NCBI GenBank assembly: GCA_963716725.1
Contig: CAVQUB010000005.1
Span: 32,001 to 96,000 of the forward strand
Reading direction: 5' to 3'
Length of the DNA stretch: 64,000 nucleotides
Source: an uncultured delta proteobacterium
GTDB taxonomy: Bacteria; Myxococcota_A; Polyangia; Polyangiales; Polyangiaceae
Positions 205-63,355 of the stretch are shown here, one piece after another. The notes beneath the pieces are model-generated. The model worked only from the letters and a program-made list of their open reading frames with translations, did no database searches and was not told the origin of the DNA. Made by a program: the position numbers and the translations under genes. Every line of letters starts with the position of its first letter. The stretch's first letter is position 1.

Positions 205-231
205 GTCCCCCGTCGGGGACTTCCCAGGGTC
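205..231 (-). repeat. 27-bp hairpin module Q inserted in frame in the transposase (adds DPGKSPTGD)
   Basis: Minus strand GACCCTGGGAAGTCCCCGACGGGGGAC with stem GTCCCC-GACG-GGGGAC; separates HY from SGVLA. Confidence 0.8.
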
Positions 232-351
232 GTAATGGACGCGATGGGCGCGTGGGGCAGGCACCGAGGCGGCTAGCCGGAGAAGAAACGACAACGGATC
301 GAGATCGATGGCCGTGGTGCCGTCGGAGAACGGTCGCTTGAGCAGGATGCG

Positions 352-405
352 ACGCGCTTCGCGACGATCCTTGAAAGTGCCCGGAGGGGCATCCCCGAAG
401 GGGGG
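352..405 (+). repeat. 54-bp element (module Q nested in module P), in frame and antisense in the transposase
   Basis: ACGCGCTTCGCGAC-GATCCTTGAAAGTGCCCGGAGGGGCAT-CCCCGAAGGGGGG; 48/54 identical to 26348-26401; splits GLV|RILLKRP and adds 18 aa with no stop. Confidence 0.85.
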
Positions 406-498
406 CACGAGCCCACTTCCGAGTCGACGCACTCGGTCTTGCGCGAGCGGCGGGCGTAGGACGTACTTGCAGAGGGTTTCGCGAGCACGCGCGTCCTC

Positions 499-543
499 CC
501 CCGTCGGGGACTTCCCAGGAGCCGCTTCGGAACACCCGGAGGG
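499..543. repeat. Q (minus) plus P (plus) modules side by side; P is completed at 2019-2021 on the far side of the IS4 element
   Basis: CCCCGTCGGGGACTTCCCAGG followed by AGCCGCTTCGGAACACCCGGAGGG(GTG); flanked by GTCCTC direct repeats at 493-498 and 2022-2027; net 54 bp. Confidence 0.8.
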
Positions 544-2010
544 CTCATGATTGATCGGATCCCATCTGGGACCGGGCAGCTCGGAAGCCGATCTCGTAGT
601 CGAGGAGCTTCTGGTAGCCCCGTCCTAACGTTTGCCACCCGGGTGCGCCGTTGTTCTTCAGATGCCCGCCGAGTCGCGCGACAGCGAATAGCGCTTGCTC
701 AATGGTCTGCGGGACGGCCGGGAGGCGGAGCTTGAACTTTATGAGGAGCAACTGGGGCTCACTCAGGATCGTTGTTGCCGGTTGCTCGGGTGCGACGCGG
801 GCTAACGAGCGCATGAGCAACAGGCGCCAGGCGATGGGCAGGAACACGGCGAGCGCGTTGCTCAGTGCCTGATACGACTCGAGCTGTCGTTTCTCGAGAG
901 AACACCCTTGCTTGAGTGCCTTGAAGAACTCTTCGATCACCCACCGACTGCGGTAACAGTCCACGACGGTCGCGAGTTCGGCGACGGTGTCAATGGGTTC
1001 GGTAGTGAGCAGCACCCACTCGACCGACGGCTCGCCTTCTGGTGGTTGGAGTTCCCAGACTCGAACCACGTTGAGTTCGATGCTGCGCGTCTCATGTCGA
1101 GTGTTGCGGGGGCGCAGCACAGTCAAACGTTTGCCTGCCACGGCGACCTCCGCGCTCCGGGCGTTGCGAGACGGGTGCTCTTTTGCAGCATGCGCGCGAC
1201 TGCTCGGTTTCCTCGATGACACCGAGATCGTGCGAAAAAACTGCGGTTCGAGCGTTGAGATTGCACTGCGCAAGCAGATGCCTATTTCCTCAGTTACTCG
1301 GTCGTGAGCCGAACGGATGACGTAGCGCGCACCGAGTTCCTGCGCCTTCGCCAGGACCTCGAAAATGTCCGCTTCGCGGTCCATCACGTGAATGAGCGCG
1401 CTGCCGGGGCAGCGTGCATGGACGGCCTCGAGCATGGCCGGCCAGCGCAGTGATTCGCGCTCGGGGTCTCTCCGACTGACAGACCGGCGGCGCCCGCGTC
1501 CACCCTTGTGTACGAGGCGGACGTGTCGCTGTAGACCCAGAACTCCGAGTGGCACTCGCTCCTCGCCGGGAAGCACGGCCAGCGCCACGTGTGCGAGAAA
1601 CCCCTGGCTGCCGCCGGACGTGACGCCCAACCCAGCTCGCCGACTGGCGCCGCCGAGCGATACTTCGGTCGTATCGTGCGCGACGATACACAGGCCAGCG
1701 GAACTCACACGCTCCACCGTCGCCGACAGGTGCGGGTCAAGGATCTGCTCCGCGTCGAACTGCTCGTTGCGCAGGAATCGGTAGACTCCCTCAAGCTCGG
1801 ACGGAGTGTCGACAGCCTGCGGAAACCCAACACCGGGCGCCGCCATCAGTTTCTCAGCGAGCCAACCGAGCCTGTCACTGCGCCGCTTATCGCCGAGCTG
1901 AGAGCCCTCGAACTCGTCCGAAATCGACCGCCCTAACCATTCTGTTGCCGGCATTTCTCCCGTAGATCACACGCGCCGTCCGCTCGCAATGAGATGTGTT
2001 TGATCATGAG
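544..2010 (-). mobile_element. IS4-family (IS50/Tn5-like) insertion sequence, 1467 bp
   Basis: Imperfect terminal inverted repeats CTCATGATTGATCGGATC and CTCATGATCAAACACATC; 8-bp target duplication CCGGAGGG at 536-543 and 2011-2018; contains one DDE transposase gene. Confidence 0.9.
545..1954 (-). CDS. IS4-family DDE transposase (IS50 group)
   Basis: Motifs LGDKRR, YRFLRN, HDTTE, MDREAD, YRSRWVIEEFFKALK (YREK) and ARLGG..PGWQTLGRG; stop codon lies inside the terminal repeat. Confidence 0.93.
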   Translation of the reverse strand: MPATEWLGRSISDEFEGSQLGDKRRSDRLGWLAEKLMAAPGVGFPQAVDTPSELEGVYRFLRNEQFDAEQILDPHLSATVERVSSAGLCIVAHDTTEVSLGGASRRAGLGVTSGGSQGFLAHVALAVLPGEERVPLGVLGLQRHVRLVHKGGRGRRRSVSRRDPERESLRWPAMLEAVHARCPGSALIHVMDREADIFEVLAKAQELGARYVIRSAHDRVTEEIGICLRSAISTLEPQFFRTISVSSRKPSSRAHAAKEHPSRNARSAEVAVAGKRLTVLRPRNTRHETRSIELNVVRVWELQPPEGEPSVEWVLLTTEPIDTVAELATVVDCYRSRWVIEEFFKALKQGCSLEKRQLESYQALSNALAVFLPIAWRLLLMRSLARVAPEQPATTILSEPQLLLIKFKLRLPAVPQTIEQALFAVARLGGHLKNNGAPGWQTLGRGYQKLLDYEIGFRAARSQMGSDQS

Positions 2011-3008
2011 CCGGAGGGGTGGTCCTCGCCGGGAGCCGTGGTGGCCGCATGCACCGAGAAGCCGTCCTCGCGGGCGGCCAGACCGGAAACGGAGAGCTCG
2101 CCGCGATCGGGCAGTGCGATGGCGGGACGCTGCCGATGCTCGGGCCCCGCCGGAGGGTTGCCGGTGACGGCGGCGGTGGCGAGTGCGGCCAGCTCGGGCT
2201 CGCGCTCGGCGAAACCGTCGTCGGTGAGGCAGAGCTCGTTGTCTCGTTCGACGACGCCGCGACGCGCGAGAAAGTCCAAGATGCGCACGCGGGCGGCGTG
2301 CAAGAGATCTGCGACGTCGGAGTTGGAGAGCGCGGGGAGCTGGTGGAAGACGAGGCTCCCGTCATCGGTCTCGAGGAAGACTCCGTCCAACGCGAGCAGG
2401 TGCAGGTGGGGGTTGAGTCGGAGGTCGGAATTCACGCGTTGCACAGCGGTGATCGCGCCGCTCTGGCCTTTGCCCACGCGGTAGAGGTCGCGCATCGTGC
2501 GGCGGTAGAAGCCGAGCACGCTGTCGGCGAACAGTCGCGTGATCCGGCTGAGCAGCTCGCGGTCGTAGGCGACGCGGGCGCGGAGCTCGAACGGCAAGGT
2601 GAGAACCCACTGCCTGAGCGGAGCACGCGACGGCAGAACATGGTCGATCCAATTCGCCGCTGACTCGGCCATCGTTCTGCCCAGGCACGAGGGGCACCAT
2701 GCGCGTCCCTTGCAAGAAAACGCGACCAAGAGCTTCGCGCGGCACTTCGGGTCTTGGCATTGAAGAAATCCAAAACCGTGCGCCAGGATTCCGCACTCGA
2801 GGTAGCCCTCGAACTCATCCCTCACGAACGCCGGCAACAGCGCGATGATCTCTTGGTCTGCGGCGGCTTCGAGCGTGCGGTAGTTCTCGGCGACGACCTG
2901 GTAGAAGTCGCTGAGCTCCGGTCGCCGGCGTCGATATTCGACGCCGCTGCCATCCGAAGTTGCGTCCGAGATCGGCAGCGCGGCGGCCATCGCCGCGCCC
3001 GAGCGCAC
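2011..3008 (-). pseudogene. N-terminal half of IS91/ISCR-type HUH rolling-circle transposase, interrupted by the IS4 element
   Basis: YRRRRPE; Cys-rich zinc-binding segment (CGILAHGF...C...C...AFSCKGRAWCPSC); RQWVLTLP; NPHLH (HUH); FSVHAAT. The ORF stop at 2004 comes from the IS end. Confidence 0.9.
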
Positions 3009-3608
3009 ACGGCGTGCCGACCCCGCCCGGGGCGAGAACGCCGCAAATTACCGTGTTGCAGGCGCTCGGGTGGGTGGCGAAACGCCGGCCGCCGGCGGCG
3101 GCCGCCACTGCCCACCGCTGCGCGCTACCCCGCCGCCGCCGCGAACCCCAGCGACTCACCCGCTTCCGGCGCTCGCATCACCAGCATCAGACGCGTCCGT
3201 TCCCTGGCAAGCCAGGGTCCGAAGCTCGTGAACCACGCCGGCTCGAGCCCGGCACCACGCGCCCAAGAGCGCGACCGAAAGCCCTGCCATCCTCGGCCCG
3301 AGCTCACGTCGCAGGATCAATCGCAGTGGAACTCGCTGCCAAAACAACTGCGAACGTGTCTGTCCATTCCCGAAGGAAACCCCCGTCCGCCTGAGCGGGA
3401 CGATCCAACGCGCCACCTCGGCCCAAATCGGAGCCGCCCATGAGCAGTACGTGTTCGTTCCGGATCCGCCGCCCGGAACGAGCGGCAACTGACGTAGCGG
3501 GCGTGCTCGTGCGTGCGCCCAGGTTTTCCGATGAGCGCGCAGTGGCGCTCATGTGGGAGGCTCGGTGCACAAACACCCCCCCCCGCCTCCGCGCTCCGAG
3601 CCCCGCCA

Positions 3609-5225
3609 CTACTCCGAGCAACCCAACCCCAGCGGGCCCGCCGTCAGCAAATACTTCGGGCTAGGGCACGACTTCACGCAGACGGGCAGGTTGCAACCCG
3701 CGCTGCCGCGCGGCACCACGTAGGTGCAGCCGCCGGCGCCGCAGCCGTGCTTCACGCCGGTGGCGGCGTCTTGGCCGAAGCCTTGTTTCGGAGCGGTCAC
3801 GCAGAAGCCGAAGATGTTCACCTTGCCGGCCGGGCATCCGCTGTTCTGCGCGACGGGGCAGGTGTTGAAGTGACGCGGGCTGCCGTCGGGGCAGGGCGGC
3901 ACGCAGATCGGGATGCCGCTGTCGGGCACCAAGCCGGGCGGGCAGTCGCCGGGGCTGGGCGTGGGCGGCGTCGGCTCGCCGGGTTTGTTCGGCTTGTCGC
4001 CGCCGCTCGGCGTGCTGACGTCGACCAGGTACGAGTAGCGCAGGTTGGTCTTCAGCGTGTTCTCGTGGATCCAGGCGTAGCCGCCGTCGCCCCACTTGGG
4101 GCCCCAGCTGTTGTGGATCAAGAAATAGGTGCCGTTGCCCTGGGTCTTGTAGCCCGACAGCACCATCGCGTGTCCCGAGCCCGAGTGACGGAAGTCACCG
4201 TCGGGGATCACCGCCGGCGAACCCTTCACGCTCTGGAACGCGTCGTCGACCCACATCGCGAACCAAACGTCTTGGCCTTTGGCGATGGTGGCCTTGATCT
4301 CGGAGATGTCCCCGTCGGGCAGGCGCGTGACGTTGGTGACCTTCGCCGTCTGCGCCGAGTCGAGCTGGCCGAGCTTCTGGCTGTCCACGGGCTGCTGACA
4401 CGAGACGTTGAGCATCGAGCCGCAATCGCAGCCCCCACCTGACCAATATTTGCAGGCCTCGACCTTGTCGTAGGGCCACGCGCTCTCGTTGCCGAGGGAC
4501 TTGCCCTTGTTCGACGAGGTTGCGTCTTGCATCGACGGCACGTGATAGCGCGCCCACACTTGCATCACGCTGACGTTGCCCGGCTTGCTGGTCGTGGTCG
4601 CGATGGCGTGGTCGATGGCCGTCGCGAAGGAGAAGGCCGTGCACGCGCCGACGGGACCTTGATTGCGCACCGGGCCCTCGGTGCCCGCCGCACGGTGGTC
4701 GACCGCGGCCGGCAACGCGTCGGCGCCCTCGTGGGCGGGGCTCACGTTGAAGGCTTGGCGTCGCACCACATACTGGCTCGCCTCGGCCACGGTGCCGTAG
4801 GTCGGAGTCATGCAGTCGAGCAAGAACTGCTCACCGCCGATGTTCGCTACGCCACAACCCTTGATGCCCTTGGCGGCCGGAGGCGGCGCGGGCTGCCCAC
4901 CGGGCGCGGTTGGGTTCGGCTGCGTCGGAAACCCGGGGATGGGCGGGATGGGAATTCCGCCGAGGCTGCCCCAGCCGGGGGGCGGCGCGGGCAACTGGAA
5001 CGCCGACGCGGGCGGCGGGGGCGGCAGCTGGAAGCCCCAGAAGGGCGCGGGGGCGGGCGCGGCCGCGGCCGGAGGTGGCGCCATCGGGGGCGGCGGGTTC
5101 TGCGCCACCGCGTAGCCGCCAGGATATGCCGCGGGCTGGGTGGCGGAGCGTCCGTTTCCGGTCGTGCAACCGTGAGTCAGACCCAGTGTGACGAGCGCGA
5201 GGGCGATGGTTCGATGGGTGGTCAA
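3609..5225 (-). CDS. Papain-like (C1 family) cysteine peptidase, probable lipoprotein, with Pro-rich N-terminus and Cys-rich C-terminus
   Basis: NQGPVGACTAF, GHAMVLSGY, NSWGPKWGDGGY; lipobox-like LTHGC; TTG start is inferred. Confidence 0.85.
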   Translation of the reverse strand: MTTHRTIALALVTLGLTHGCTTGNGRSATQPAAYPGGYAVAQNPPPPMAPPPAAAAPAPAPFWGFQLPPPPPASAFQLPAPPPGWGSLGGIPIPPIPGFPTQPNPTAPGGQPAPPPAAKGIKGCGVANIGGEQFLLDCMTPTYGTVAEASQYVVRRQAFNVSPAHEGADALPAAVDHRAAGTEGPVRNQGPVGACTAFSFATAIDHAIATTTSKPGNVSVMQVWARYHVPSMQDATSSNKGKSLGNESAWPYDKVEACKYWSGGGCDCGSMLNVSCQQPVDSQKLGQLDSAQTAKVTNVTRLPDGDISEIKATIAKGQDVWFAMWVDDAFQSVKGSPAVIPDGDFRHSGSGHAMVLSGYKTQGNGTYFLIHNSWGPKWGDGGYAWIHENTLKTNLRYSYLVDVSTPSGGDKPNKPGEPTPPTPSPGDCPPGLVPDSGIPICVPPCPDGSPRHFNTCPVAQNSGCPAGKVNIFGFCVTAPKQGFGQDAATGVKHGCGAGGCTYVVPRGSAGCNLPVCVKSCPSPKYLLTAGPLGLGCSE

Positions 5226-5369
5226 GGGCTTCGTCCGATCATACGTCAACCTGGCGCGAGGGCTTCCGCCAAGTTGGACGTGCGAGGCGATGAATCCTGG
5301 CACTGACTTTGTGCGTGAATGTGCGCTGCGCTTGACGGAGCGAGACGTCGGCGATGTGCTCCGCGGGCG

Positions 5370-6050
5370 ATGACCCAAGACGAAGCCAAGCTGCTGGCGG
5401 CCCAGGCCGCGCTGGCGCTCCTGCCCAAATCCGGCGTGATCGGCCTCGGATCAGGCTCCACCGCCAAGCTCTTCATCGACGGCGTGGGCCAGCTCGTCCG
5501 CAAGGGTCAAGCGTTGGTCGGCGTCGCGACCAGCGATGCGAGCCGGTCACAGGCCACCGCCCTGGGCATTCCGCTCTTGTCCGACGATGGTCCTTGGGAC
5601 ATCGCGCTCACCGTCGACGGGGCGGACGAAGTCAGCAGCAAGCTCGATCTGATCAAGGGAGGGGGCGGCTGTCACGCCCGGGAAAAGATCGTGAACTTCG
5701 CCTCGCGCACCAACGTGATCATCGTCGACGAGAGCAAGCTGAGCGAGAAGCTGGGCGAAAAATGGCCCGTACCCACCGAGGTGCTCGGCTTCGGACACGA
5801 GTCGACGCTGCGCGCCCTCGAGCGCTTTGGGAAGGTCACGCGGCGCATGCGTGACGAACGACCCTGGCTGACCGACGCTGGAAACTACATCTACGACGTG
5901 CACGTCGGCCCCATCGACGACCCCGCGGATCTCGACCGGCGCCTGCGGGCGATCGCCGGGGTGGTCGAGACTGGCCTGTTCGTGGGCCGCGCCGATCGGG
6001 TCATCGTCGCAGGCCCCAGCGGCGCGCGAGAGCTGACTTTGCCGGGTTGA
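5370..6050 (+). CDS. rpiA: Ribose-5-phosphate isomerase A
   Basis: GLGSGST, DGADEV, IKGGGG..REKIV, GVVETGLF. Confidence 0.95.
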   Translation: MTQDEAKLLAAQAALALLPKSGVIGLGSGSTAKLFIDGVGQLVRKGQALVGVATSDASRSQATALGIPLLSDDGPWDIALTVDGADEVSSKLDLIKGGGGCHAREKIVNFASRTNVIIVDESKLSEKLGEKWPVPTEVLGFGHESTLRALERFGKVTRRMRDERPWLTDAGNYIYDVHVGPIDDPADLDRRLRAIAGVVETGLFVGRADRVIVAGPSGARELTLPG

Positions 6051-6096
6051 CCCGGGAGTGTTTGGAGGGGCCTCGAAGGGCGCTATGCTTGGCCCC

Positions 6097-7224
6097 GTGA
6101 GAGTTCGAACCGTTCTTCGTGCCGCTTCGTTTGGCTGGGTGGTGGTCGCGACCGCGGCCGTGGCGTTTGCTCAGGCGACGCCCCGGTCTGCTTTCCCGCC
6201 AGCGGATCCGCCGCAGCAGGATCAACCGGTCAACCCCTGGGATGCGCCGGCGATCGCCGCCGACGGGGCGGCTAAGCCTCCGGCGAACGAGTCGCCGCTC
6301 GAGCGCGCGCGTCGACAGGTCGTCGTGCTGCAGCGCGCCGGCAAGGCCCTGGGCATGGGCAGCGTGCTCTCGGGTGACGGCCGCATTCTGACGGCGCTCT
6401 CGGTGCTCGGCCACGGCAACAACGTCGACGCGCGTTTCGCGGACGGCACCGTGATCGCCGTTCGCGTCGTGCACTTCGATCGCGGCTGGGATCTAGCGCT
6501 GGTGGCCGCGGTGACTCCCCACTCCGACCAGGGGCTGCGCGCGTCGCGGGTCGCTCCCGCCAAGGAGTCGAAGCTCACGGCCTTTGGCCCCGGCGCCAAG
6601 ACGCTGGCCGCAGCTCCGGTTCGCATCAAGAACTCGGCGACGCTGGTGGGCGGCGACAACGCGCCGCTGGTCTCGGCGCTCGTGCTGGACAGCAAGCACA
6701 AGGCGACCGAGCTCGGCTCCCCCGTCATCGACGAGAAGGGCGACGTGGTCGCTATCCTCGCGCAGGCTTGCGCGGGCGCGGCCGACAAGCCCTGCTCCCT
6801 CGCGCCCTTCGGCGCACCGGTCTCCGCCATCAAGGAGTTCTTGCGGACAGTGCCCACCGCCAGCCCCAGCCAGTGGCCGTCCTCTGGCATCCGCGTCACG
6901 CCGCACGACACGGGCACAGTGAAGGGAGTTCGAGTCTTGGCCGTGAGCCCGAGATCAGCGGCCGCCGGATCGGGACTGAGGAGCGGGGCCGACACCATCG
7001 TTGCTGTCGACGGCACGCCGGTCACGACCGCCGACGCGTTGGATGGAGCCCTGCGTGCGCGCGCGGGTCGCTCGCTGGAGCTGTTGGTGTTCGGGCACGG
7101 TCGCTACCGGATCGTACGCGTGGGCCCGGCCGCGCGACGCCCCGGAGGCTTCCGGCCCGCCGAGCCCCGCAGCCGGTGGCCGGCTCCGCGCCGGCCCCGG
7201 ACCCAGCCGGACCCGGGATATTGA
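6097..7224 (+). CDS. Secreted trypsin-like (HtrA/DegP-like) domain plus PDZ protein, catalytically degenerate
   Basis: GSVLSGDGRILTA, DLALV, GSPVIDEKGDVVAI; PDZ-like SAAAGSGLRSGADTIVAVDG; N-terminal signal peptide. Confidence 0.7.
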   Translation: MRVRTVLRAASFGWVVVATAAVAFAQATPRSAFPPADPPQQDQPVNPWDAPAIAADGAAKPPANESPLERARRQVVVLQRAGKALGMGSVLSGDGRILTALSVLGHGNNVDARFADGTVIAVRVVHFDRGWDLALVAAVTPHSDQGLRASRVAPAKESKLTAFGPGAKTLAAAPVRIKNSATLVGGDNAPLVSALVLDSKHKATELGSPVIDEKGDVVAILAQACAGAADKPCSLAPFGAPVSAIKEFLRTVPTASPSQWPSSGIRVTPHDTGTVKGVRVLAVSPRSAAAGSGLRSGADTIVAVDGTPVTTADALDGALRARAGRSLELLVFGHGRYRIVRVGPAARRPGGFRPAEPRSRWPAPRRPRTQPDPGY

Positions 7225-7364
7225 GCCGCGACACCCCAAAATACCCGGCTTTTTGCGGCGCGAGTGGCTTGGTCGACAGGACTTCGTTTCACCCCCTAGG
7301 CTCCGCTCGCGCGGACTGCTAAAAGGATTTTGCGGAAACCCAGAAGCCTTCCGCAGAATTACCC

Positions 7365-8138: not shown

Positions 8139-8141
8139 GCG

Positions 8142-11786: not shown

Positions 11787-11857
11787 TTCCGGCGCATGGA
11801 TTCGAACCATGATTCAGGGATTCAAAGTCCCTTGTCCTGCCTTTAGACGACGCCGGA
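11787..11857 (-). tRNA. tRNA-Gln (anticodon TTG); CCA not encoded
   Basis: Acceptor stem TCCGGCG/CGCCGGA; anticodon arm AGGGA-CTTTGAA-TCCCT; T arm CATGG-TTCGAAT-CCATG; followed by A then CCG. Confidence 0.95.
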
Positions 11858-26299: not shown

Positions 26300-27188
26300 A
26301 TGTTCGCGCGCTGGTTCTGCTCCTGCTCCGCTGTCGTGCTCGTCGTGACGCGCTTCGCGACGATCCTGGAAAGTCCCCGGAGGGGGATACCCGACGGGGT
26401 GGGGCAGGCATGGGCGGCCGAATCGGGGATTCGATCCCGAGTCACCGGCCGAGTCGACGCCTGCGCCTGCGCCTGCGCCCGCGACGACGGCGGATCCGCC
26501 GTACGCAGCCTGGCAAGGCTCGGGTCACGCCCCACCCGACGGCTACTCACCCGGATCGATTCCGGCGCCAGCGGTCGGCGCACCCATCTACGCGCGTCGA
26601 ACGGTCGAGCTCATCCCCGCGCTTGGCGTCGCCCTGGCGAACTGTCGCGCCGGCTCCCGCTCCGACAACCGCTGTGATGGCGTCGGCGGCGGCGGCATCG
26701 TCGGGTTCACCGGGCTCTGGCGAGTCACGCCCTACTTCGCGTGGGGTGGCGGCTTCGAGGTCGCGGCGTTCCGCAATCGACCCTCCGAGGAGAGTGAGCT
26801 CTCCGACGCGAGCGCTGCGGCCGTGTGGCTCGGGCTGATCGGTCGGGTGTATTTCAACGACGAAGGCGCCCTCGATCCCTACGTGCAACTCGCCATCGGC
26901 GTCGGTGCGCTCGGCACGCAGGCGACCGATCCGGCGGACGTCACCTGGGAGGAGACCGGCGCCGGACCCGCGGCACAAATTGGCGGGGGCCTCGACTTCC
27001 ACCTTTCGCGATCGCTTCGGCTCGGTCCGTCGCTGACCTACACACGGGTGTTCGTGGACAAGATCCGACGCTGTCAGGCCTCGGGCGGCGGCAAGTGCGA
27101 GGACGTGTCGAAGGACGACGACGGTCACTTGAACTCACACCTGACGCTGGCCGCTCGCCTGACCATCACTCTGGGGGGGGAGCACTGA
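26300..27188 (+). pseudogene. Outer-membrane beta-barrel-like protein with a 54-bp insert in the signal peptide and a +1 frameshift near 26425-26428
   Basis: Signal peptide MFARWFCSCSAVVLVV[insert]GQAWA-AES; a different frame continues GFDPESPAE...ELIPALG...DPYVQLAIG..GGGLDF..LGPSLTY to the stop at 27188. Confidence 0.65.
26348..26401 (+). repeat. 54-bp element (Q nested in P)
   Basis: ACGCGCTTCGCGAC-GATCCTGGAAAGTCCCCGGAGGGGGAT-ACCCGACGGGGTG; no internal stop codon in any of six frames. Confidence 0.85.
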
Positions 27189-31597: not shown

Positions 31598-32232
31598 CAC
31601 GCTCGCTCCGCCCCGTTCACCAGCGCGCCCGTGCGGCGCTCGACGGCGACCGTCGGCAGCGAGCGCGGCGCGATCGGACGAAGCTCGGGCAGCTGACCCA
31701 CGACGCCGGCGATGTGCATGGACACGGCGTCAAAGGACTCGCCCGCGGCGCTGCCGAGGGCGCGGCCATACGCAAACTCGCTGCGCGACGTCGTCGCGAC
31801 ACTCTCGCCGGCCAGCGGGATCCCGTCGCGCACCAGCTGCCAGGTCCCGCGAACGTTGGCGGACCAGCCAGGCCCGGTCGCGCTCGGCGGGCTCGAATCG
31901 ACGCGCACGCGCAGGTGCAAGAGGTAGTCTCCCGGAGCGACGTTGTCGCCCTTCCGCTTGACCGAGACCGAGGGAAAGCTCGGCCAGAGGGTGCGTTCGA
32001 GGGCGCCGCCGAGCGCCGCGTGCACCTCGGCGAAGCACAACGCCCGCTCGCTGGCAGTCCGCTCACACTGACGATCGGGCGTTCCCTCGAGCTCGATCCA
32101 CAGGCGACTCGAGTGGGCGACCATGGCGTCCGTTGGCGGGGCGAGCTCGGCTGAGCGCACGGTGGCGTGGTGATGGTGCGTGCACGCGAACGAGAAGCCC
32201 GCGGCGACGATCCAGGCGTGCTGCCGGTTCAT
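31552..32232 (-). CDS. Hypothetical lipoprotein
   Basis: MNRQHAWIVAAGFSFAC lipobox followed by THHHH; convergent overlap with the dnaA 3' end. Confidence 0.6.
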   Translation of the reverse strand: MNRQHAWIVAAGFSFACTHHHHATVRSAELAPPTDAMVAHSSRLWIELEGTPDRQCERTASERALCFAEVHAALGGALERTLWPSFPSVSVKRKGDNVAPGDYLLHLRVRVDSSPPSATGPGWSANVRGTWQLVRDGIPLAGESVATTSRSEFAYGRALGSAAGESFDAVSMHIAGVVGQLPELRPIAPRSLPTVAVERRTGALVNGAERACQSSDEAKRCSMASR

Positions 32233-55241: not shown

Positions 55242-55291
55242 CCCGGCATCCTGACCTTGCCGGGGCCGAGAGAAAAATCCCCGGGGCCCCC

Positions 55292-55791: not shown

Positions 55792-55893
55792 CTGCTTCTA
55801 GAATCACGAAGGTCACCGCGCGAGCATGTTGCTCGTCGATGGCGGACGTGTGTCCCAAGCGCCACTTCGGCGCAGTTTGAACAGGAGTCCATC

Positions 55894-56139
55894 ATGAACA
55901 CGCAAACCGAATCCCAGAACCAGTCCGACGCCGCCGAGATCGCATCTGCCTTCGTCCGAGTGGGCGCCGCATGGGCTCGCTACGGCCTCAGCATCGCGCG
56001 CTCGTCGGTAGAGACCAGCGCCCGCACGCTGGAAGTGACCGCGGGCGCCTTGGGCACCATCGCGAATCGCTTCGAAGAGCTCGCGAAGGACCCCAAGGCC
56101 GAGGGCGACACGGTGAAAACCACCGGCAAACCCGAATGA
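55894..56139 (+). CDS. 81-aa amphipathic helical protein
   Basis: AGGAG RBS; coding-like codon usage. Confidence 0.7.
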   Translation: MNTQTESQNQSDAAEIASAFVRVGAAWARYGLSIARSSVETSARTLEVTAGALGTIANRFEELAKDPKAEGDTVKTTGKPE

Positions 56140-56179
56140 CGCGCGGCCGCGGAACGAGTCGATCTATGCTGTCCCCACC

Positions 56180-57085: not shown

Positions 57086-57154
57086 AGCGAGCGATGGATG
57101 CTTCAGGCCGGGTGTGGCCGCGCAGCTTGCGAGGATCGTAGTACCGTATCGCGC

Positions 57155-58954
57155 ATGAAGCGGCTCCTCCTTCTCGGGTGTCTCGCGCTGGCGTTGTCCT
57201 GCACCGATTCCAATGACGACAACGGTCCCAGGGACGCTGGCAGCCAAAGCGACGCCGCCACTCCCAGCGACGCTGGTGGCCAAGGCGACGCCCAACCGGG
57301 CGATGGTGGGACTTGCGTTCCCACATGCGCGGCCGGTCAAGGGTGCGGAAATGATGGCTGCAATACCGATACCTGCGGCATTTGCGCCGCCAACGAGATC
57401 TGTCAACCGGACCTCACTTGTGCCGTGCCGGCCCCGGAAACTTATCTCGCCGTCGTCAACGACTCCGAGACCATCTCCAATTGCATGGCGCCCTGCGCGG
57501 TGCAGTTCGATGTGCAGGCAGCCGAAAACCTCAGTTGGACCCAAGTACGCGACGGTCGCTTCATCTGGAATTTCGACGACGGTGGGTCGACGGCGGACAG
57601 CGAGGGATTTCTCGCCGCGACCGTCTACGAGACACCCGGGACTTACCAGCCGACGGTCACCGTAAACGGCCAAACGTGGACGGCGCAGACCATCCAGGTC
57701 ACGGCGCCCGATTGGGTGGGCTGCGTTTCACCCGCTAGCCTGGGAGTCGGCCGGTTTGACGATTGCCCGGATAGCACCCACCACTATGACGACCTGAACG
57801 CGGCGCTCGGCGCAGCGAGCGGCAGCTTCCACGTACTGCTGGATCGGGCCTCGGCCGCCTCCTACGGCAATCTCCCAGAGAACGCCGGCAAGCCATCCAT
57901 GATTGGTGCCTACGGTGCCGAGGTCACCTTGCCGAAGGTCGGCACCGCAGACGCCCGTCCTCGTTCAAATTGGCGCTACGTGGATCTCGACATCACCGTG
58001 AGCGGCGACGCCGGTATTGGGTTCGTCAACGGCTTCGGCGTGCTGCTGCTTCGCGTCAATTCGCACGGGACGACGAAGTACAATCACATGGCTGCCGATG
58101 ACGGCTTCTTTCTGATCGACAGCCGATTCCGAGGCAATGACTACGTCCTGATCGGCGGCGATGTGGTCCGCCCGACAGCGAAGGGCAGCACCTTTGTTCG
58201 CACGGTGGAGGGTCAGAGCACCTTCCGAATGTCCGGCGGAAAGAAGGAGCTTTACCAGAACTGTTCCTTTGATTGTGACGGTTGTGGCAGCCAAATCGGG
58301 CTCACGATCCGCGCAAACACGGACTGGGTGCTCGTCCAGGGCAACACCTTTCTGGAGAACGCGGGTGCGGCTGCTGACGCCGGCGATCCCAACGTCACCC
58401 ATCGATACATCATCTGGGAGCGCAACCTCTACGACCTCAGGACCGCTGAGCAGAATTTCCAAAACGCTTTCAGCATGCGAGACAGCGTCATTCGGAACAA
58501 TGTGTTGCTCGACCCAGCGAGCGGTGGCGCTGGAGTCGCCATTGCGGTGGGAACGGTATCTGGAGAAGACTCAGGCAATGTGTGGGTGACGAACAACACC
58601 ATCATCCAGAGCAACCCAGACAAGATGGCGGTCCTCTTGGACTGTGTCCTGGGAGGTTGCGTCAACAAGAACAACCTAATGTTCTCCACCGGGAGCTCGT
58701 TCGACAAATGCTTCTCGGGGGGCACGCTTTCAAACAACTGGTGCTACTCGAGCAACTACTGTTTGAATCCGAACGGATCGACCACGCCGTGTTCGGCTCC
58801 GAGCTTCGTGAGCACCGACCCGACGAGTGCCGACTTCGCCCGGCCCGCAGCAAACACGGTGGGCATCAACGCTGGCGACCAGACAGTCCCCGTCTTTGAC
58901 GACTACTTCGGAACACCGCGAACCATGATTGACGTGGGTGCGGTCGAACGATGA
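57155..58954 (+). CDS. Lipoprotein with Cys-rich module, PKD-like domain and parallel beta-helix (pectin-lyase-like) region
   Basis: Lipobox ALSC; CGNDGC..TCG.C; WNFDDG...YETPGTY; IRNN/VTNNT repeats; C-terminal DYFGTPR...DVGAVE. Confidence 0.8.
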   Translation: MKRLLLLGCLALALSCTDSNDDNGPRDAGSQSDAATPSDAGGQGDAQPGDGGTCVPTCAAGQGCGNDGCNTDTCGICAANEICQPDLTCAVPAPETYLAVVNDSETISNCMAPCAVQFDVQAAENLSWTQVRDGRFIWNFDDGGSTADSEGFLAATVYETPGTYQPTVTVNGQTWTAQTIQVTAPDWVGCVSPASLGVGRFDDCPDSTHHYDDLNAALGAASGSFHVLLDRASAASYGNLPENAGKPSMIGAYGAEVTLPKVGTADARPRSNWRYVDLDITVSGDAGIGFVNGFGVLLLRVNSHGTTKYNHMAADDGFFLIDSRFRGNDYVLIGGDVVRPTAKGSTFVRTVEGQSTFRMSGGKKELYQNCSFDCDGCGSQIGLTIRANTDWVLVQGNTFLENAGAAADAGDPNVTHRYIIWERNLYDLRTAEQNFQNAFSMRDSVIRNNVLLDPASGGAGVAIAVGTVSGEDSGNVWVTNNTIIQSNPDKMAVLLDCVLGGCVNKNNLMFSTGSSFDKCFSGGTLSNNWCYSSNYCLNPNGSTTPCSAPSFVSTDPTSADFARPAANTVGINAGDQTVPVFDDYFGTPRTMIDVGAVER

Positions 58955-59173
58955 CGCCCTGGAGCTCCGATCAGGCTGAAGCACGCGAGTTTGCTCGGAC
59001 CGAAACCATCCGAGCGGAATGCCATGGGCTTTCGCGTGGGCGACGAGCTCCGGCAAGGTCACCGTCCAGCGCTCGGTGAGGGCTCGCCAGTCGCCCCCGC
59101 AATACTTCTCCACGAGCTCGGCGGTCTTGCCGCAGAGGAGCGCGGTCAGCTGATCGTGCTTCGGGATCTCCAT
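58730..59173 (-). CDS. Possible small hypothetical protein; 3' end runs antisense into the beta-helix gene
   Basis: First ~65 codons fill the gap after fabH and look coding; the remainder is doubtful. Confidence 0.35.
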   Translation of the reverse strand: MEIPKHDQLTALLCGKTAELVEKYCGGDWRALTERWTVTLPELVAHAKAHGIPLGWFRSEQTRVLQPDRSSRASSFDRTHVNHGSRCSEVVVKDGDCLVASVDAHRVCCGPGEVGTRRVGAHEARSRTRRGRSVRIQTVVARVAPVV

Positions 59174-59227
59174 GGCAGGGGAGGGCGCGCTCGAGTTGCT
59201 CGCCGGCAACGCCGAGTGATCGCGCGC

Positions 59228-60229
59228 TCAGAAGCGCAGGACGGCGCCAGCCCAGGTGAAGCCGGCGCCAAAGGCCGCGAGCAAAACCGTCTTGCCGGCC
59301 GTGAGCCGGCCGTCTTGGATGGCGGCGTCGAGGGCCATGGGGATCGTCGCGGCGGTCGTGTTGCCGTACTTCTCGATGTTGTGCACGACCTTCTCTTCGT
59401 CGATTTCGAGGCGCCAGCCCACCAGTTGATTGATGCGCATGTTCGCCTGGTGCGGCACGAAGAGGTCCACGTCTTTGATCCCGAGGCCGGCCTTGCCGAG
59501 CACCTCGTGGGCGACCGCCGGCATCTTGTCCGTCGCCCAGCGGAAGACCTGCTTGCCCTTCATCTTCGGGAAGTGGCGGCCCTCGTCGATCATCTCTTTG
59601 GTGATGCGCGGGATGTGCTTGGAGGCTGGCGCTTCGAGCCAGAGATCTTGTGCCGCCGAGCCGTCGGCGTGCAGTGCGACGGAGAGCAGCCCGCTCTTTT
59701 CGTCCTTGGCGCGGCCGATCACCGCCGCGCCCGCACCGTCGCCGAACAACACGGCCACGTCGCGACCGCGATCGCTGAAGTCGAGCCCCGTCGAGTGCAC
59801 CTCCGAGCCGACCAGCAGCACGTTCTTGTACGTGCCAGTGCGGATCCAGGCGTCGGCGACGCTGAGCCCGTAGATGAACCCCGAGCACTGGTTGCGGACG
59901 TCGAGCGCGGGCACGCCCGGCAGCCCGAGCTTGTGACCCAAGAGGCAGCCCGAGCCCGGAAAGGTGTAGTCGGGGGAGAGCGTGGCGAAGATGATGGCGT
60001 CGATCTCTTCCTTCTTCACGCCAGCGTGGGCGAGCGCCCGCTCCGAGGCGGGCACCGCCAAGTCGGAGGCCCCGATGCCGTCCTCTTCGATGTAGCGGCG
60101 CTCCTTGATGCCAGAGCGCTGGAAAATCCACTCATCGCTCGTGCTCATCAGCTTGGAGAGGTCGTCGTTGGTCACGACCTTGCTCGGAACGTAGCTGCCA
60201 ACGCCCAATATTGCCGAACGTGCTTCCAT
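59228..60229 (-). CDS. fabH: 3-oxoacyl-ACP synthase III
   Basis: TSDEWI..RSGI.ERR, NQCSGF, LFGDGAGA, PHQAN, YGNT, FGAGFTW. Confidence 0.95.
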   Translation of the reverse strand: MEARSAILGVGSYVPSKVVTNDDLSKLMSTSDEWIFQRSGIKERRYIEEDGIGASDLAVPASERALAHAGVKKEEIDAIIFATLSPDYTFPGSGCLLGHKLGLPGVPALDVRNQCSGFIYGLSVADAWIRTGTYKNVLLVGSEVHSTGLDFSDRGRDVAVLFGDGAGAAVIGRAKDEKSGLLSVALHADGSAAQDLWLEAPASKHIPRITKEMIDEGRHFPKMKGKQVFRWATDKMPAVAHEVLGKAGLGIKDVDLFVPHQANMRINQLVGWRLEIDEEKVVHNIEKYGNTTAATIPMALDAAIQDGRLTAGKTVLLAAFGAGFTWAGAVLRF

Positions 60230-60257
60230 TGCCAATCGCGCGCCGTAACATGGCGCC

Positions 60258-60842
60258 ATGGCGATTCGCAAGATTGCTCAGATGGGGAATCCGGTGCTTC
60301 GAGTGCGGGCCCCAGAGGTTCCACCAGAGGAGATTGGCTCCGCGCGCATCCAGACGCTGATCGACGACATGATCGAGACCATGCGCGACGCCAACGGCGC
60401 TGGAATCGCCGCGCCGCAGGTCCACGAGTCGCTGCGCATGGCGGTGATCGAAGTTCACGGCAACCCTCGCTACCCAGACTTTCCCGGGATCCCGCTCTCG
60501 GTACTGGTTAATCCAATTGTCGAGCCGCTGGTGGCCGTCGATCCGCTCGACGATCGCGACGCCATCGTGATGTACGAGGGCTGCCTGTCGGTGGACGGCA
60601 TCCGCGGTCGTGTCCGACGTCCGCGCGTCGTGCGAGTACGTGGCCTCGACCGCGAGGGCCGCCCCGTCGACTTCACCTGGGAGGGGCTCAGGTCGGCGGT
60701 GGTCCAGCACGAGACCGATCACCTCGACGGCATCCTGTTCATCGACCGCGCCGACCCGCGATCGCTGGCCTTCATCGGGGAATACGACCGCTACGTGCCG
60801 CGCGAAGAGCGCATGGTCGACGGGGTCGAGTTGGTGGAGTGA
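60258..60842 (+). CDS. def: Peptide deformylase
   Basis: GAGIAAPQ, EGCLS, QHETDHLDG. Confidence 0.96.
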   Translation: MAIRKIAQMGNPVLRVRAPEVPPEEIGSARIQTLIDDMIETMRDANGAGIAAPQVHESLRMAVIEVHGNPRYPDFPGIPLSVLVNPIVEPLVAVDPLDDRDAIVMYEGCLSVDGIRGRVRRPRVVRVRGLDREGRPVDFTWEGLRSAVVQHETDHLDGILFIDRADPRSLAFIGEYDRYVPREERMVDGVELVE

Positions 60843-60902
60843 GCAGGCTTGCCTTGCGCCGCACGATGCCTGCTACGATGACTACCCTCGAGCGCCCCGA
60901 CC

Positions 60903-62561
60903 ATGCGACCCAATCCCGGTGACGTCATCGGCGGCAAGTTCCGCATCGTTCGCATGATAGGCGACGGGGGAATGGGCGCCGTCTTCGAGGCGCGCCACGA
61001 GGTCTTGGGCACTAGCGTCGCGCTGAAGTTCCTGCACACGGAGCTCGCGCGGCGTCAGGGGTTGGCCACGCGTTTTCTGCAAGAGGCGCGGGTCTCGGCC
61101 AGCATCCAGAGCCCCCATGTCACCAAGGTCACCGACGTCGAGCAGACCGCGGACGGCACTCCCTACTTGGTCATGGAGCTTTTGACCGGCGAGTCGCTTC
61201 AGCAGCTCCTGGATCGCCAGCGCAAGCTCCCAAAGGATCAGGCCATCGACTTCGTGCTCCAGATCTTGTCTGGGCTCGAGGCCGCGCATGCGCTCGGCGT
61301 CGTGCACCGTGACCTGAAGCCGGACAATGTGTTCATCACTCCCAGCACCGGCGGTCCGGTCTGCAAACTGCTCGACTTCGGCATCGCCAAGCTGCGTCAG
61401 ACCAACGACTACAACAGGGGGCTGACCCGCCCAGGCGCGCTGATGGGCACTCCCGAGTACATGTCGCCCGAGCAGCTCTACTCGGCCGATCGCGTGGACC
61501 ACCGCGCGGATCTCTACTCCATTGGCGTGATGCTGTTCGAATTGCTCGCGGGCGAACGCCCGGCCATCGGCGAAGACGCGGCTGCCATCGTCGGCAACGT
61601 GATGGCCGGCAAGGTGAAGCGCCTCGACCAGCTCGATCCGTCTCTGCCGGGCGAGCTGGTGGCCGTGGTGCACAAGGGCATCGACCCGGACAAGGGCCGG
61701 CGCTTCCAGAGCGCGGTCGAGATGCGCTCGGCCATTGCACCCTTTGCTGGGCAGCTCTCTCACGCGGGCAAGCTCGCAGCGACGCCGGTTCCTGCCGGGG
61801 TTTCCGGCTTTCCTGAGCCCGCGGATCAGCCCGCGGCGCCGGCTGACAAGCCGCCGATCACCGCGGACGAACCTGCGCTCGATCCACCGAAGCCAGGAGT
61901 GGCGCCCACGCTGCCGCCCGAAGACGAGACGGCTCCGGCGCCGCAGCGTCCAGCCACGGTGCGCGACATGCCCGCGCAGGGCGGGACTCAAGAAGCCAGC
62001 AAAGATCTGATCGCGAACATCGCGGCCGAGAACGCCGCAGCTCAGGCGGTGCCCGTGGCGCCGACGCCGCCGGCCTACGCGTCGCGTGCGCCGGTCGCAG
62101 CGCCCTTTCCGGTGCCGCAGCAGTTTCCGTCGGCTCCCCGACGCAAGAGCGGCGGGGGAGGCGGGCTCGTGCTCGCGCTCCTGGGCGGGGTGGTGGTGAT
62201 TGGCGCGATCATCGGCGGGATCATTTGGGTGCGCCAGAACAAGGACACTTCGGGCGGCGACCAACCCATCAACATCGCGGGCACGACTCCGACCACGAAG
62301 ATGACGGGGCAAGGCCCGGCCTATGATCCGCAGCCCCAAGTCCCGCAAGACCCGCCGCCACAGACCGATCCGGGTCCTGGCCCCAAGCCCACGGCGACGG
62401 GCACCAGCAAACCGAAGCCCAAGGATGCCGGCGCCGACCCGGCGCAAGACGCTCAGAGCCCGATGCCGACCTGGCCGCTGCCCATGCCCAGCGGCATGCC
62501 GCCGATCCCCACGTTCCCGTTCCCGATTCCGGTCTGGCCACCGCCGGCGCCGAGCCAGTGA
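60903..62561 (+). CDS. Hanks-type Ser/Thr protein kinase with TM helix and Pro-rich tail
   Basis: GDGGMGAV, VALK, HRDLKPDN, DFG, GTPEYMSPE. Confidence 0.95.
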   Translation: MRPNPGDVIGGKFRIVRMIGDGGMGAVFEARHEVLGTSVALKFLHTELARRQGLATRFLQEARVSASIQSPHVTKVTDVEQTADGTPYLVMELLTGESLQQLLDRQRKLPKDQAIDFVLQILSGLEAAHALGVVHRDLKPDNVFITPSTGGPVCKLLDFGIAKLRQTNDYNRGLTRPGALMGTPEYMSPEQLYSADRVDHRADLYSIGVMLFELLAGERPAIGEDAAAIVGNVMAGKVKRLDQLDPSLPGELVAVVHKGIDPDKGRRFQSAVEMRSAIAPFAGQLSHAGKLAATPVPAGVSGFPEPADQPAAPADKPPITADEPALDPPKPGVAPTLPPEDETAPAPQRPATVRDMPAQGGTQEASKDLIANIAAENAAAQAVPVAPTPPAYASRAPVAAPFPVPQQFPSAPRRKSGGGGGLVLALLGGVVVIGAIIGGIIWVRQNKDTSGGDQPINIAGTTPTTKMTGQGPAYDPQPQVPQDPPPQTDPGPGPKPTATGTSKPKPKDAGADPAQDAQSPMPTWPLPMPSGMPPIPTFPFPIPVWPPPAPSQ

Positions 62562-63355
62562 GCGCGACCGTTTCGCGCCAAGACCACCTCGTGACTCGCA
62601 AAGAACCCTCAGCCGACTACGTGCGGGAGTTCGCCGCCAGTATGTCGCGTGTTTATCGCGCTGCCCACGGCGAGGCCGAGATCCGCGAGCATGCCGGGGC
62701 CGCCACGCGCCGCGGTGGCGCGGCGGTCAACGTAGAGTTGCTCGCACACACCCACGACGCGCTTCGTGACACCCGAAGGGGTGGAGCGCCTGGCGTGATG
62801 TGCGTGGTCGCCGACGACCGTCCCGGTCTCTTGGCGACTATCAGCGCGGCATTTGTCCTGGCGGGGCTCGATGTCATCGACGCTACCGCCCACACACGTA
62901 AGACCTCCGGCGGGCGGCGAGAAGCCGTCGACATGTTCTGGGTGCGCTACACCGAGCCCGCCAAGCGATCCGAGCGCGTGGCTGCCGCAGACGCGGAGGC
63001 CGTTGCGCGCGTGCTCGTCGATTTGCTCGAAGGCAGGCTCGACCGCGAGGTGGCCTCGAGGCGCTCGGTGGGCCCGGCGCCCAAGGCCAGCGAGACCAAG
63101 GTGAGGTTTGTCGAAAACGAAGACGGCGAGCTGGCGACGCTCGAGGTCGAGACCGACGACCGCTCCGGACTCCTGCTCGCGCTCAGCCAGGCGCTCTTCG
63201 ATCAAAAAGTGCAGATCGTCGAGTCCGCGGTGAAGACCGAGGGCGCGCGCGTGCTCGATCGCTTTCAGATCGTCGAGCTCGACGGCAAGCCCATCCAGCC
63301 CCAGCGACGGCTGGAGATCCAGGTTTCGGTGTTGTCTGCGATTCAGGTGGGGTGA
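62558..63355 (+). CDS. Stand-alone tandem ACT-domain protein resembling the GlnD C-terminus
   Basis: DDRPGLL...AVDMFWV and LEVETDDRSGLL..LS...VKTEGARVLDRF; no nucleotidyltransferase or HD domain. Confidence 0.8.
   Translation: MSATVSRQDHLVTRKEPSADYVREFAASMSRVYRAAHGEAEIREHAGAATRRGGAAVNVELLAHTHDALRDTRRGGAPGVMCVVADDRPGLLATISAAFVLAGLDVIDATAHTRKTSGGRREAVDMFWVRYTEPAKRSERVAAADAEAVARVLVDLLEGRLDREVASRRSVGPAPKASETKVRFVENEDGELATLEVETDDRSGLLLALSQALFDQKVQIVESAVKTEGARVLDRFQIVELDGKPIQPQRRLEIQVSVLSAIQVG
62757..62783 (+). repeat. 27-bp module P inserted in frame (adds DALRDTRRG)
   Basis: ACGCGCTTCGTGACACCCGAAGGGGTG, equal to the 54-mer without its central Q; hairpin CACCC-GAAG-GGGTG. Confidence 0.8.

Follow-up and report, generated by a model that had tools for sequence, protein, structure and literature searches.

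The window, a 64,000-nucleotide stretch of DNA (positions 32001–96000 of contig C5) from a Polyangiaceae assembly designated G000, carries two kinds of 27-bp hairpin modules, here called P and Q. The evidence makes it likely that P and Q represent two related families of mobile DNA modules, very small and non-autonomous, that are copied in an oriented, target-specific way. The assembly comprises 7.89 Mb in 35 contigs, with 67.8% G+C and a completeness of 84%. An earlier description of the window, made from its sequence alone (the original prediction), had reported P and Q at five sites in three unrelated genes. All five sites were read again and are as described, and the host genes encode an IS91/ISCR-like transposase, an outer membrane protein (OMP)-like protein and an ACT-domain protein. 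The peptide junctions that had been quoted (HY|SGVLA, GLV|RILLKRP and VV|GQAWA) are present in the translations. The modules, their host genes and an insertion sequence (IS) that has entered one of the modules are listed below, where P[Q] denotes a Q inside a P and ORF denotes an open reading frame.

205–231, minus strand: Q module, 27 bp, with 0 mismatches to the Q pattern; lies in the IS91/ISCR-like transposase gene
352–405, plus strand: P[Q] composite, 54 bp (P-left 352–365, Q 366–392, P-right 393–405)
496–522, minus strand: Q variant (GCTCC...GGGGGAG) beside a P remnant
523–543, plus strand: left part of a P-type module, which stops in the hairpin loop at the IS entry point
544–2010, minus strand: IS4/Tn5-like IS, 1467 bp, sitting in the P hairpin loop; transposase ORF 545–1954
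2011–2021, plus strand: right part of the split P hairpin (CCGGAGGGGTG), from a reading of the sequence
1–3008, minus strand: host gene 1, the IS91/ISCR-like transposase gene, split by the IS and extending upstream beyond the window
26348–26401, plus strand: P[Q] composite, 54 bp, within the part of the OMP-like gene that encodes the signal peptide
26300–27188, plus strand: host gene 2, the OMP-like gene, with signal peptide and mature part in different frames
62757–62783, plus strand: P module, 27 bp, in the ACT-domain gene; peptide H[DALRDTRRG]G
62558–63355, plus strand: host gene 3, encoding a protein with two ACT domains (Pfam ACT, ACT_4)

Repetition, structure and insertion sites

Each 27-bp unit has a leader of 11–13 nt and then a G+C-rich hairpin, with a stem of 6 bp and a loop of the form GNNG. 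The leaders are GAYCCTKGRAA for Q and ACGCGCTTCGYGA for P. Regular expressions find the exact Q consensus 5 times in G000, and 12, 31 and 97 times when up to one, two and three mismatches are allowed; the corresponding counts for uninterrupted P are 2, 17, 25 and 43. A structure-tolerant Q pattern (≤1 mismatch) has 105 matches in this genome versus 0 for the reversed pattern, a P pattern has 46 versus 0, and an nhmmer profile of Q gives 124 matches at E≤0.1. This repetition is far above chance. A looser leader-plus-hairpin grammar was dropped as too unspecific (363 Q-like matches versus 153 in the reversed genome) and was replaced by nhmmer and the stricter patterns. P-left alone (≤1 mismatch) mostly marks chance sites with no hairpin behind them and was left out of the counts.

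Merging neighboring units yields 126 clusters at 92 distinct sites, which bears out the proposal that P and Q form a real repeat family whose units are set at 27 bp and occur nested and stacked. By length, the clusters measure 27 bp (n=97), 54 bp (n~15) and also 108, 135, 162, 189 and 216 bp, and the odd values of 41, 42, 60, 121 and 257 bp represent units overlooked by the tokenizer. The arrangements include P alone, Q alone, Q inside P, Q inside Q and tandem arrays, with four units within one P at C6:145278–145412 and eight Q in the longest head-to-tail array. A Q array is also carried by a multi-copy element found at C2:193797, C3:37335, C5:605042, C6:47678, C21:51032, C33:25635, C13:58168 and C4:109708. 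Among copies of this element that are otherwise 99–100% identical, the number of Q units in the array is 1, 2, 2, 4, 5, 6 and 7; the ORFs that span it have no Pfam match and poor codon scores.

The Q hairpin was analyzed in an alignment of 85 distinct sequences from G000 and other genomes, 10 of 95 candidates having been excluded as interrupted or clearly not Q. When the stem is defined as columns 12–17/22–27, 93.1% of stem cells pair, versus ≤69% in slid controls. Double-sided changes number 39, versus 8.6 ± 2.4 after shuffling, and 0 of 500 shuffles reach 39. For example, pair 14–25 is CG in 56 sequences, AU in 14 and GC in 5, and pair 17–22 is CG in 65, UA in 12, AU in 3 and GC in 2. The Q hairpin is selected, as this strong compensatory covariation demonstrates. 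By eye only, variants of P-right (ACCC/GGGT, ACTC/GAGT, GCCC/GGGC and CCCC/GGGG) look compensatory as well. A search of 34 module-bearing loci with Rfam 15 returned no family at gathering score, and the window yields only a tRNA. Guanidine-II was considered as an identity for Q and judged a chance match, since its score on a tandem Q array, 24.1 bits, is below the cut-off of 32 and the loops differ.

The original prediction expected that orthologues would lack the inserted segments cleanly, and this expectation was borne out in five host genes by comparison with six other species of the genus. In the ACT gene, all five of the closest genus mates lack exactly 27 bp, reading CACGGC where G000 has CACG, the 27 bp and GA. 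The P in YbeY (HERSS[DALRDTRRG]GGKD) corresponds to exactly nine residues that are missing in all five genus mates having a match. For the antisense P in phosphoglucomutase (GKML[HPFGYREAR]RPES), genus mates have four clean 9-aa gaps and one 11-aa gap, two genus-mate sequences being too divergent to use. The 54 bp of P[Q] in the OMP-like gene are missing in five of six genus mates. In a TPR protein, eight Q and 15 nt form a 77-aa block in a linker; the block is missing in genus mates G001, G003 and G005, and in G004 two matches overlap at the junction. The TPR orthologue of a further genus mate, G002 (C2:1143722–1143746, L256), carries a P (SDALRDTRRGT) only a few codons from the position of the eight-Q block, and the two insertions are independent events in one linker.

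Empty sites are also found within G000. For ∼35 of the 126 clusters, counted by hand from the flank listing, both 120-nt flanks occur adjacent to each other elsewhere in the genome. In 23 filled/empty paralogue pairs, chosen because their flanks were adjacent, the difference is exactly the module. A P in one multi-copy element is present at six loci and absent at C6:120301, with flanks that are 96–100% identical; in some pairs, such as C11:505702 versus C6:120301, the flanks share 97–100% identity. Such near-identical flanks indicate that some insertions are recent. Contigs from independent sequencing runs of two other studies (X5 and X6) carry the P of the ACT gene with 0–8 substitutions and no indel, and therefore this module is no assembly artefact. 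Judged by these alignments, P and Q are true insertions relative to both orthologues and paralogues.

Insertion follows a short target motif. The dinucleotide AC, which has a frequency of 5.1% in the genome, precedes Q at 35 of 42 distinct sites in G000, and in other genomes 87 of the 97 distinct left flanks of Q end in it. Similarly, CG precedes P at 25 of 32 sites in G000, where its frequency is 14.1%. Because empty sites carry AC and CG too, these nucleotides belong to the target rather than to the element, and the orientation of each insertion is fixed relative to its motif (AC for Q, CG for P). No target duplication past 1–2 ambiguous nucleotides is seen in the filled/empty pairs.

Several junctions bear on the exact boundaries of the unit. 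Where an uninterrupted P has GAT|ACCC, Q units in P finish GAT or CAT; Q in Q finishes CAA where the host Q reads GGAA|GT, and one P finishes in CA where its empty paralogue reads GCA|CAG. These cases suggest that the last base of the unit comes from the target, so that the unit as written would be shifted by one base. The weakest pair of the Q stem is the outermost, 12–27, with 20 unpaired cells, which fits a last base belonging to the target. If the last base is target-derived, then the junctions suggest entry of Q at A|Y and of P at C|R. P-left and Q both end in GAY. The modules themselves contain such target sites, which explains Q-in-P and Q-in-Q nesting as well as tandem arrays, and growth of arrays by slippage may be compatible with this account.

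Host genes, reading frames and IS entry

The original prediction presented the modules as chiefly a phenomenon of coding genes, and the genome-wide data do not agree. Coding potential was scored with a codon-usage log-odds model trained on long ORFs and kept as a relative measure only; a classifier based on G+C content at third codon positions was dropped, as it called only 51% of random windows coding. Both flanks score as coding for 28% of the 126 clusters versus 71% of 3000 random windows. A Pfam scan was then applied to the two best-scoring module-spanning frames per site (154 ORFs, 91 of 92 sites). At 46 of 92 sites the module is in frame with a Pfam domain at E≤1e-4, and the other 46 are without a Pfam-supported frame. 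Among the domain-bearing frames, 13 modules lie within the domain, 12 lie C-terminal to it in the same open frame, and 21 lie N-terminal to it, where the module could be in coding sequence or in a leader. On the evidence of these frames, 25 of the 92 sites are certainly within coding sequence and predicted to be translated (15 sense and 10 antisense). These coding fractions are lower bounds, as they rest on Pfam-supported ORFs. The claim that there is no intergenic copy stands for the window only and does not extend to the whole genome. What does persist is that coding insertions occur in both orientations, adding 9, 18 and up to 77 residues.

Host genes include those for an FtsY/SRP54-type GTPase, UvrB, a pseudouridine synthase, YbeY, RecO, a Ser/Thr kinase, an EAL protein, a branched-chain permease, phosphoglucomutase and a CBM9 protein. 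Other hosts are of mobile type, including rve, IS66, Tn5-like, HNH and DUF559 genes. Most copies reside in mobile-element genes or in DNA of atypical codon usage, and ordinary genes are the minority of provable cases. The IS91/ISCR-like transposase family forms the core of the largest group of clusters with similar flanks, which has 28 members. One lineage of this gene (C12:54–56 kb, C13:83–93 kb, C5:20–21 kb and the copy in the window) carries up to seven modules per copy, whereas a sister lineage that is 80–89% identical has none at the corresponding positions.

The preservation of reading frames had also been considered special to the modules. However, a length that is a multiple of three is the size of the unit itself rather than a filtered outcome. 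The consensus P and Q units have no stop in any of the six frames, and 35 of 53 Q variants (66%) and 15 of 25 P variants (60%) are likewise stop-free, compared with 49.5% of random 27-mers from the genome. Stop-freeness is therefore near, or barely above, the background of a GC-rich genome. The Q variant GATCCTTGA and the P variant GTGAC each have TGA in one frame. Translational bypass of the modules was considered and has very little to recommend it, since the units contain no stop or frameshift that would need to be bypassed.

The view that host frames stay intact holds in that the consensus units bring no stop, but the OMP-like gene of the window is frameshifted. Its 18-aa insert from P[Q] falls in the hydrophobic core of the signal peptide. 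A separate 13-nt insertion (∼26427–26440), which completes the perfect palindrome CGGGAT TCG ATCCCG and is missing in six orthologues in the DNA alignment, changes the frame ∼25 nt downstream of P[Q]. By its sequence, the OMP-like gene is probably broken, a pseudogene.

Within the IS91/ISCR-like gene of the window, the Q at 205–231 adds a peptide that reads HY[DPGKSPTGD]SGVLA in the ORF translation, and the P[Q] at 352–405 is antisense to the gene and adds 18 aa. The composite of Q variant and P remnant (496–543), which had been described as a Q beside a P, recurs in two paralogues (C8:408874 and C35:5807), and its junction could not be parsed as a simple insertion. The gene scores 46 bits with Zn_Tnp_IS91 and 19 bits with Y2_Tnp (Pfam); NCBIfam ISCR_clade_Ia gives 155 bits, which is under the cut-off of that model, and IS91 is also matched.

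The IS that splits the P at the end of this composite contains the Pfam domains Tnp_DNA_bind, DDE_Tnp_1 and Dimer_Tnp_Tn5, and is bordered by an 8-bp target duplication, CCGGAGGG, at 536–543 and 2011–2018. The GTG at 2019–2021 is the end of the split P. This IS4/Tn5-like IS (∼1.47 kb) is present in 8–9 copies in G000:

window 544–2010
C10:8849–10329
C13:84022–85533
C13:288501–290000
C24:287–1757
C4:158790–160289
C5:676886–678356
C34:146607–147309

All of the junctions examined fall within the loop of a P/Q-type hairpin at CCGNNGGG with an 8-bp duplication, and the IS specifically targets P/Q hairpin loops. At several loci, IS-linked 8-bp duplications in P hairpins break the frame near the modules and give P units of 35–36 nt, which look like IS footprints. 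In run X11, an independent metagenome from another study, the two contigs that cover the ACT gene are interrupted within the P module, where they run on into two IS ends, and they overlap at 62773–62780, which is the 8-bp duplication. Thus, in another population, a tolerated in-frame P became the entry point for a gene-disrupting IS, and in this way a tolerated insertion can later turn into a hot spot of gene disruption. RNA run X20 covers only 63004–63100 of this gene and thus does not bear on whether the insert is kept in the mRNA.

Occurrence in other genomes and routes of spread

The genomes used for comparison are metagenome-assembled genomes (MAGs) or other assemblies of varying completeness that bear the depositors' taxon labels, and absence of a family means that it was not found. 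Among 40 relatives, the six genus mates have 8, 13, 3, 0, 3 and 3 Q matches and one other genus of the family has 5, and the pattern search found no match in the remaining 33. P has 4, 27, 15, 0, 10 and 45 matches in the six genus mates and 2, 3 and 1 in three other genera of the family. In a collection of species-representative genomes, the exact Q pattern occurs in at least 100 stretches. Among the matches listed, Q is present in Myxococcota MAGs (Polyangiaceae, Kofleriaceae and "Myxococcales") and also in MAGs labelled Chitinivibrionales/Fibrobacterota, Bacillota, Gammaproteobacteria and Dehalococcoidia, the contig with the last label having one copy, a P[Q] composite. A contig labelled Phycisphaerales may be mis-binned, since its three Q sites and their flanks match a Polyangiaceae contig. 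No Q match was found in viral contigs.

Five remote Q-bearing genomes were searched whole and contain 13, 19, 10, 59 and 36 Q, with 0 in reversed controls. Each has its own predominant Q variant on many contigs, and the copies of G042 lie in AT-rich non-coding flanks, which argues that Q was amplified separately in each of these genomes and against contaminated bins. The Q leader is nearly invariant across MAGs labelled as five phyla. P was found in only the Myxococcota genome among these five. In IS91/ISCR-like genes of Polyangiaceae MAGs, Q occupies the same positions as in G000, and one site filled there is empty in the window copy. Because these positions are common to both, IS91/ISCR-like IS can ferry modules between genomes.

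Two remote genomes hold Q in larger settings. In G041 (labelled Bacillota; L136, L151), Q lies in a conserved ∼190-nt flank next to ORFs that by eye are TnpB-like (zinc-ribbon, PAYSS motif) and IscB-like (PLTP N-terminus), with no Rfam match. In G045 (labelled Myxococcales; L063, L099, L025 and others), two Q units 23 nt apart are part of a larger repeat found on many contigs, whose unit reads GGATAC-Q-TCTCGTATCC...GAGCGAC-Q-AACGCGAGGCG... and which may be a structured composite element.

If P and Q are mobile as proposed, a module would be copied into a new site in a set orientation, Q directly after AC and P directly after CG. Resident modules would offer further AC or CG targets and so give rise to nesting and arrays, and insertions in coding sequence would persist as peptides of 9 aa or longer in loops and linkers. 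Such insertions would often be tolerated because the unit is 9 codons long and a genome of 68% G+C seldom yields stops. Module occupancy is densest in mobile-element genes. The oriented insertion at a short motif, the lack of duplication, the selected hairpin and the conserved leader point to an enzyme that would act on the hairpin, probably in single-stranded DNA, much as for IS200/IS605 or REP (repetitive extragenic palindromic) elements.

Several observations weigh against this proposal. Mobility is read only from differences between copies, species and populations, and no insertion has been observed directly. Surveys for Y1 and Y2 HUH proteins in G000, its genus mates and the five remote genomes revealed no mobilizing enzyme. 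A link to HUH nucleases, or to the REP-associated tyrosine transposases (RAYTs), had been anticipated, and it did not materialize. G000 has two Y1_Tnp matches, of which the strong one belongs to the IS200/IS605 family (NCBIfam, 62.7 bits):

C5:165574–165909 (L023 1444–2037), minus strand: IS200/IS605-family Y1 gene, flanked by a 66-nt inverted repeat of two hairpins

These hairpins differ from P and Q; one occurs only at that locus, and the other has no match with the pattern used. This Y1 gene is the only strong one among the seven genomes of the genus, and G000 is by far the richest of them in Q. As a mobilizer, Y1 is contradicted by the Q-rich genomes G044 and G045 (59 and 36 Q), which have no Y1 match, and by the six genus mates, none of which has a match above 27 bits even though G002 and G006 are rich in P (27 and 45 matches). 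Y1_Tnp is present in only two of the five other Q-bearing genomes. These absences are weakened as evidence by the incompleteness of MAGs. The IS91/ISCR-like Y2 protein fares no better, because Y2_Tnp, like homologues of the Q-laden transposase, is found only in two Myxococcota of the five, a pair different from that with Y1_Tnp, and because within the genus Y2 numbers do not follow those of Q (genus mate G003 has 34 Y2 matches and 3 Q). Q was not found beside Y1 or Y2 genes retrieved from other genomes. Module orientation relative to local GC skew is 24 versus 20, in a test where the skew is weak (mostly <0.03) and about half of the sites are in low-skew DNA. Finally, the target AC is the same 2 nt as the usual module end, which also fits microhomology-mediated copying.

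A bolder reading, which we regard as doubtful, is that Q is a self-contained 27-nt mobile unit that crosses phyla and is moved by machinery outside the known transposase families. As part of the same tentative reading, the mover could be an unrecognized enzyme of small elements, or else a replication or repair function, universal among hosts, that reads leader and hairpin. If this were true, no smaller class of bacterial mobile DNA with a defined target rule would be on record than P and Q, which would also be a general, low-cost way to add peptide segments and to seed intragenic landing pads for IS.

The main rival to an enzyme-driven process, and an unlikely one, dispenses with a dedicated enzyme. 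By template switching or microhomology copying, a stalled AC (or CG) end would re-prime at the AC before another module, copy its 27 nt and return via AC, and tandem arrays would enlarge by slippage. The absence of a transposase that co-occurs with the modules favors this scheme, as does the 2-nt identity, with AC preceding Q at 35 of 42 sites and the unit itself ending in AC at 19 of 42. The range of 1–7 Q units among near-identical copies of one multi-copy element also suits it, and the palindrome-completing 13-nt insertion beside P[Q] in the OMP-like gene is a typical template-switch product. However, 2 nt of homology is very little for exact and always complete 27-bp units at 92 sites. Moreover, the unit has different last bases at different targets (AA, AG, AT and CA ends), which a simple copy-and-return via AC does not predict, and the near-invariance of the Q leader across the five phyla by which the MAGs are labelled suggests that a protein recognizes it.

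An RNA route appears very improbable. Here the transcribed hairpin would be reverse-transcribed and its cDNA integrated, as proposed for the GC clusters of yeast mitochondria; for GC42, RNA-mediated spread was proposed (PMC4478555). Many copies lie in transcribed genes, in both orientations, and covariation of the hairpin suits RNA as well as DNA. Nevertheless, strict orientation to a 2-nt DNA target fits DNA transposition better, and no tail or variable 5' truncation is seen among the copies listed. Hardly any credence can be given to immobile conserved motifs of vertical or convergent origin (a regulatory RNA hairpin, a protein-binding site or a peptide motif), for although leader and hairpin of Q are strongly conserved, the former across phyla, orthologues and near-identical paralogues lack exactly the unit, the modules lie in both orientations and several frames of coding sequence (15 sense, 10 antisense), no Rfam family matches, and identical 27-nt units in AT-rich non-coding flanks of the remote genome G042 exclude a peptide motif.

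Relation to known short repeats

The original prediction also regarded the modules as a possibly undescribed system. In principle, precedents exist in intragenic REPs (PMC3733652), small dispersed repeats (SDRs; PMC2884548) and mitochondrial GC clusters (PMC4478555). P and Q are unusual in having a unit fixed at nine codons, an explicit target rule, modular nesting and, for Q, a spread across phyla. A literature search found no relevant publication with the Q sequence, nor one on such elements in Myxococcota.

Like P and Q, REPs are short hairpin repeats with many copies, some of them inside ORFs, and they are reportedly landing sites for IS (Tobes and Pareja 2006, as listed in PMC3116915). 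Di Nocera et al. (2013, PMC3733652) describe REPs as 20–40 bp long with an unpaired GTAG/CGTC tag; some lie wholly in ORFs, including DNA-repair and RNA-modification genes, to which they add residues, and most families are limited to a species or genus. In contrast, P and Q are without a GTAG or CGTC tag, have a fixed length of 27 bp, and form nested and head-to-tail arrays. In addition, no RAYT (Y1) gene flanked by P or Q is found in G000, and Q is common to MAGs of several phyla.

Cyanobacterial SDRs are said to be 21–27-nt hairpins that occur singly, in tandem and nested, with insertion polymorphism and no known transposase. The architecture of P and Q matches this description, and by such accounts SDRs are the closest system, a likeness that is one of description only; P and Q reside in another phylum and have other sequences. 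In PMC2884548 (citing Elhai et al. 2008, Genome Res 18:1484), "small dispersed repeats" are ∼20 bp, in tandem and possibly mobile. For P and Q, the target rule, the clean 9-aa insertions in housekeeping proteins and the cross-phylum spread are documented.

Rickettsia palindromic elements, which are ∼100–150 bp long, also insert in frame into ORFs, as P and Q do. They are confined to Rickettsia and longer, and the modular P and Q of 27 bp are set apart from them by length, as originally proposed. PMC3733652 describes them as in-frame palindromic repeats in ORFs that probably still encode functional proteins.

Mitochondrial GC clusters resemble P and Q in their short flanking repeats, merging units and unexplained mechanism. 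As summarized by Wu and Hao (2015, PMC4478555), these are G+C-rich hairpins of tens of nucleotides with a sporadic distribution and 2–3-nt flanking repeats (AG/ACT), their units merge and shuffle by a mechanism that is unknown, and double-hairpin and byp elements (Paquin 2000 and Lang 2014, as cited there) are related cases. GC clusters are organellar and lie in an AT-rich background, whereas P and Q lie in a bacterial chromosome, in nuclear-type housekeeping genes, with a fixed length of 27 bp.

IS200/IS605 elements insert in an oriented manner 3' of a short motif, without duplication, and need a hairpin beside their cleavage sites. P and Q likewise insert oriented and 3' of a short motif, without duplication and with a hairpin. 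They differ in having one hairpin rather than two different ends and in having no associated Y1 gene, and no strand bias was detected relative to the weak GC skew. Background on single-strand transposition by the HUH Y1 transposases of IS200/IS605 is given in PMC6006769. Miniature inverted-repeat transposable elements are distinct, because the ends of P and Q are not inverted repeats and there is no DDE-type target duplication beyond 1–2 ambiguous nucleotides.

Ever since the description of REPs, cyanobacterial SDRs and mitochondrial GC clusters, it has been an open question how hairpin repeats of tens of bases spread. P and Q are clean material for it, given their fixed size, dozens of exact filled/empty pairs, an oriented 2-nt rule, nesting that follows the rule, and diverse genomes. 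This makes it feasible to look for a mobilizing activity by phylogenetic profiling and to test it on simple oligonucleotide substrates. The modules also show a route to short loop insertions, as in the YbeY, phosphoglucomutase, ACT-domain and TPR proteins relative to their congeners.

Two further features were noted in the course of this analysis. A 22-nt k-mer at C3 ∼186.5–193.3 kb has 112 copies with a spacing of mostly 61 bp and is evidently a large CRISPR array. The window also contains one tRNA gene:

11787–11857, minus strand: tRNA gene (Rfam RF00005, 62 bits)

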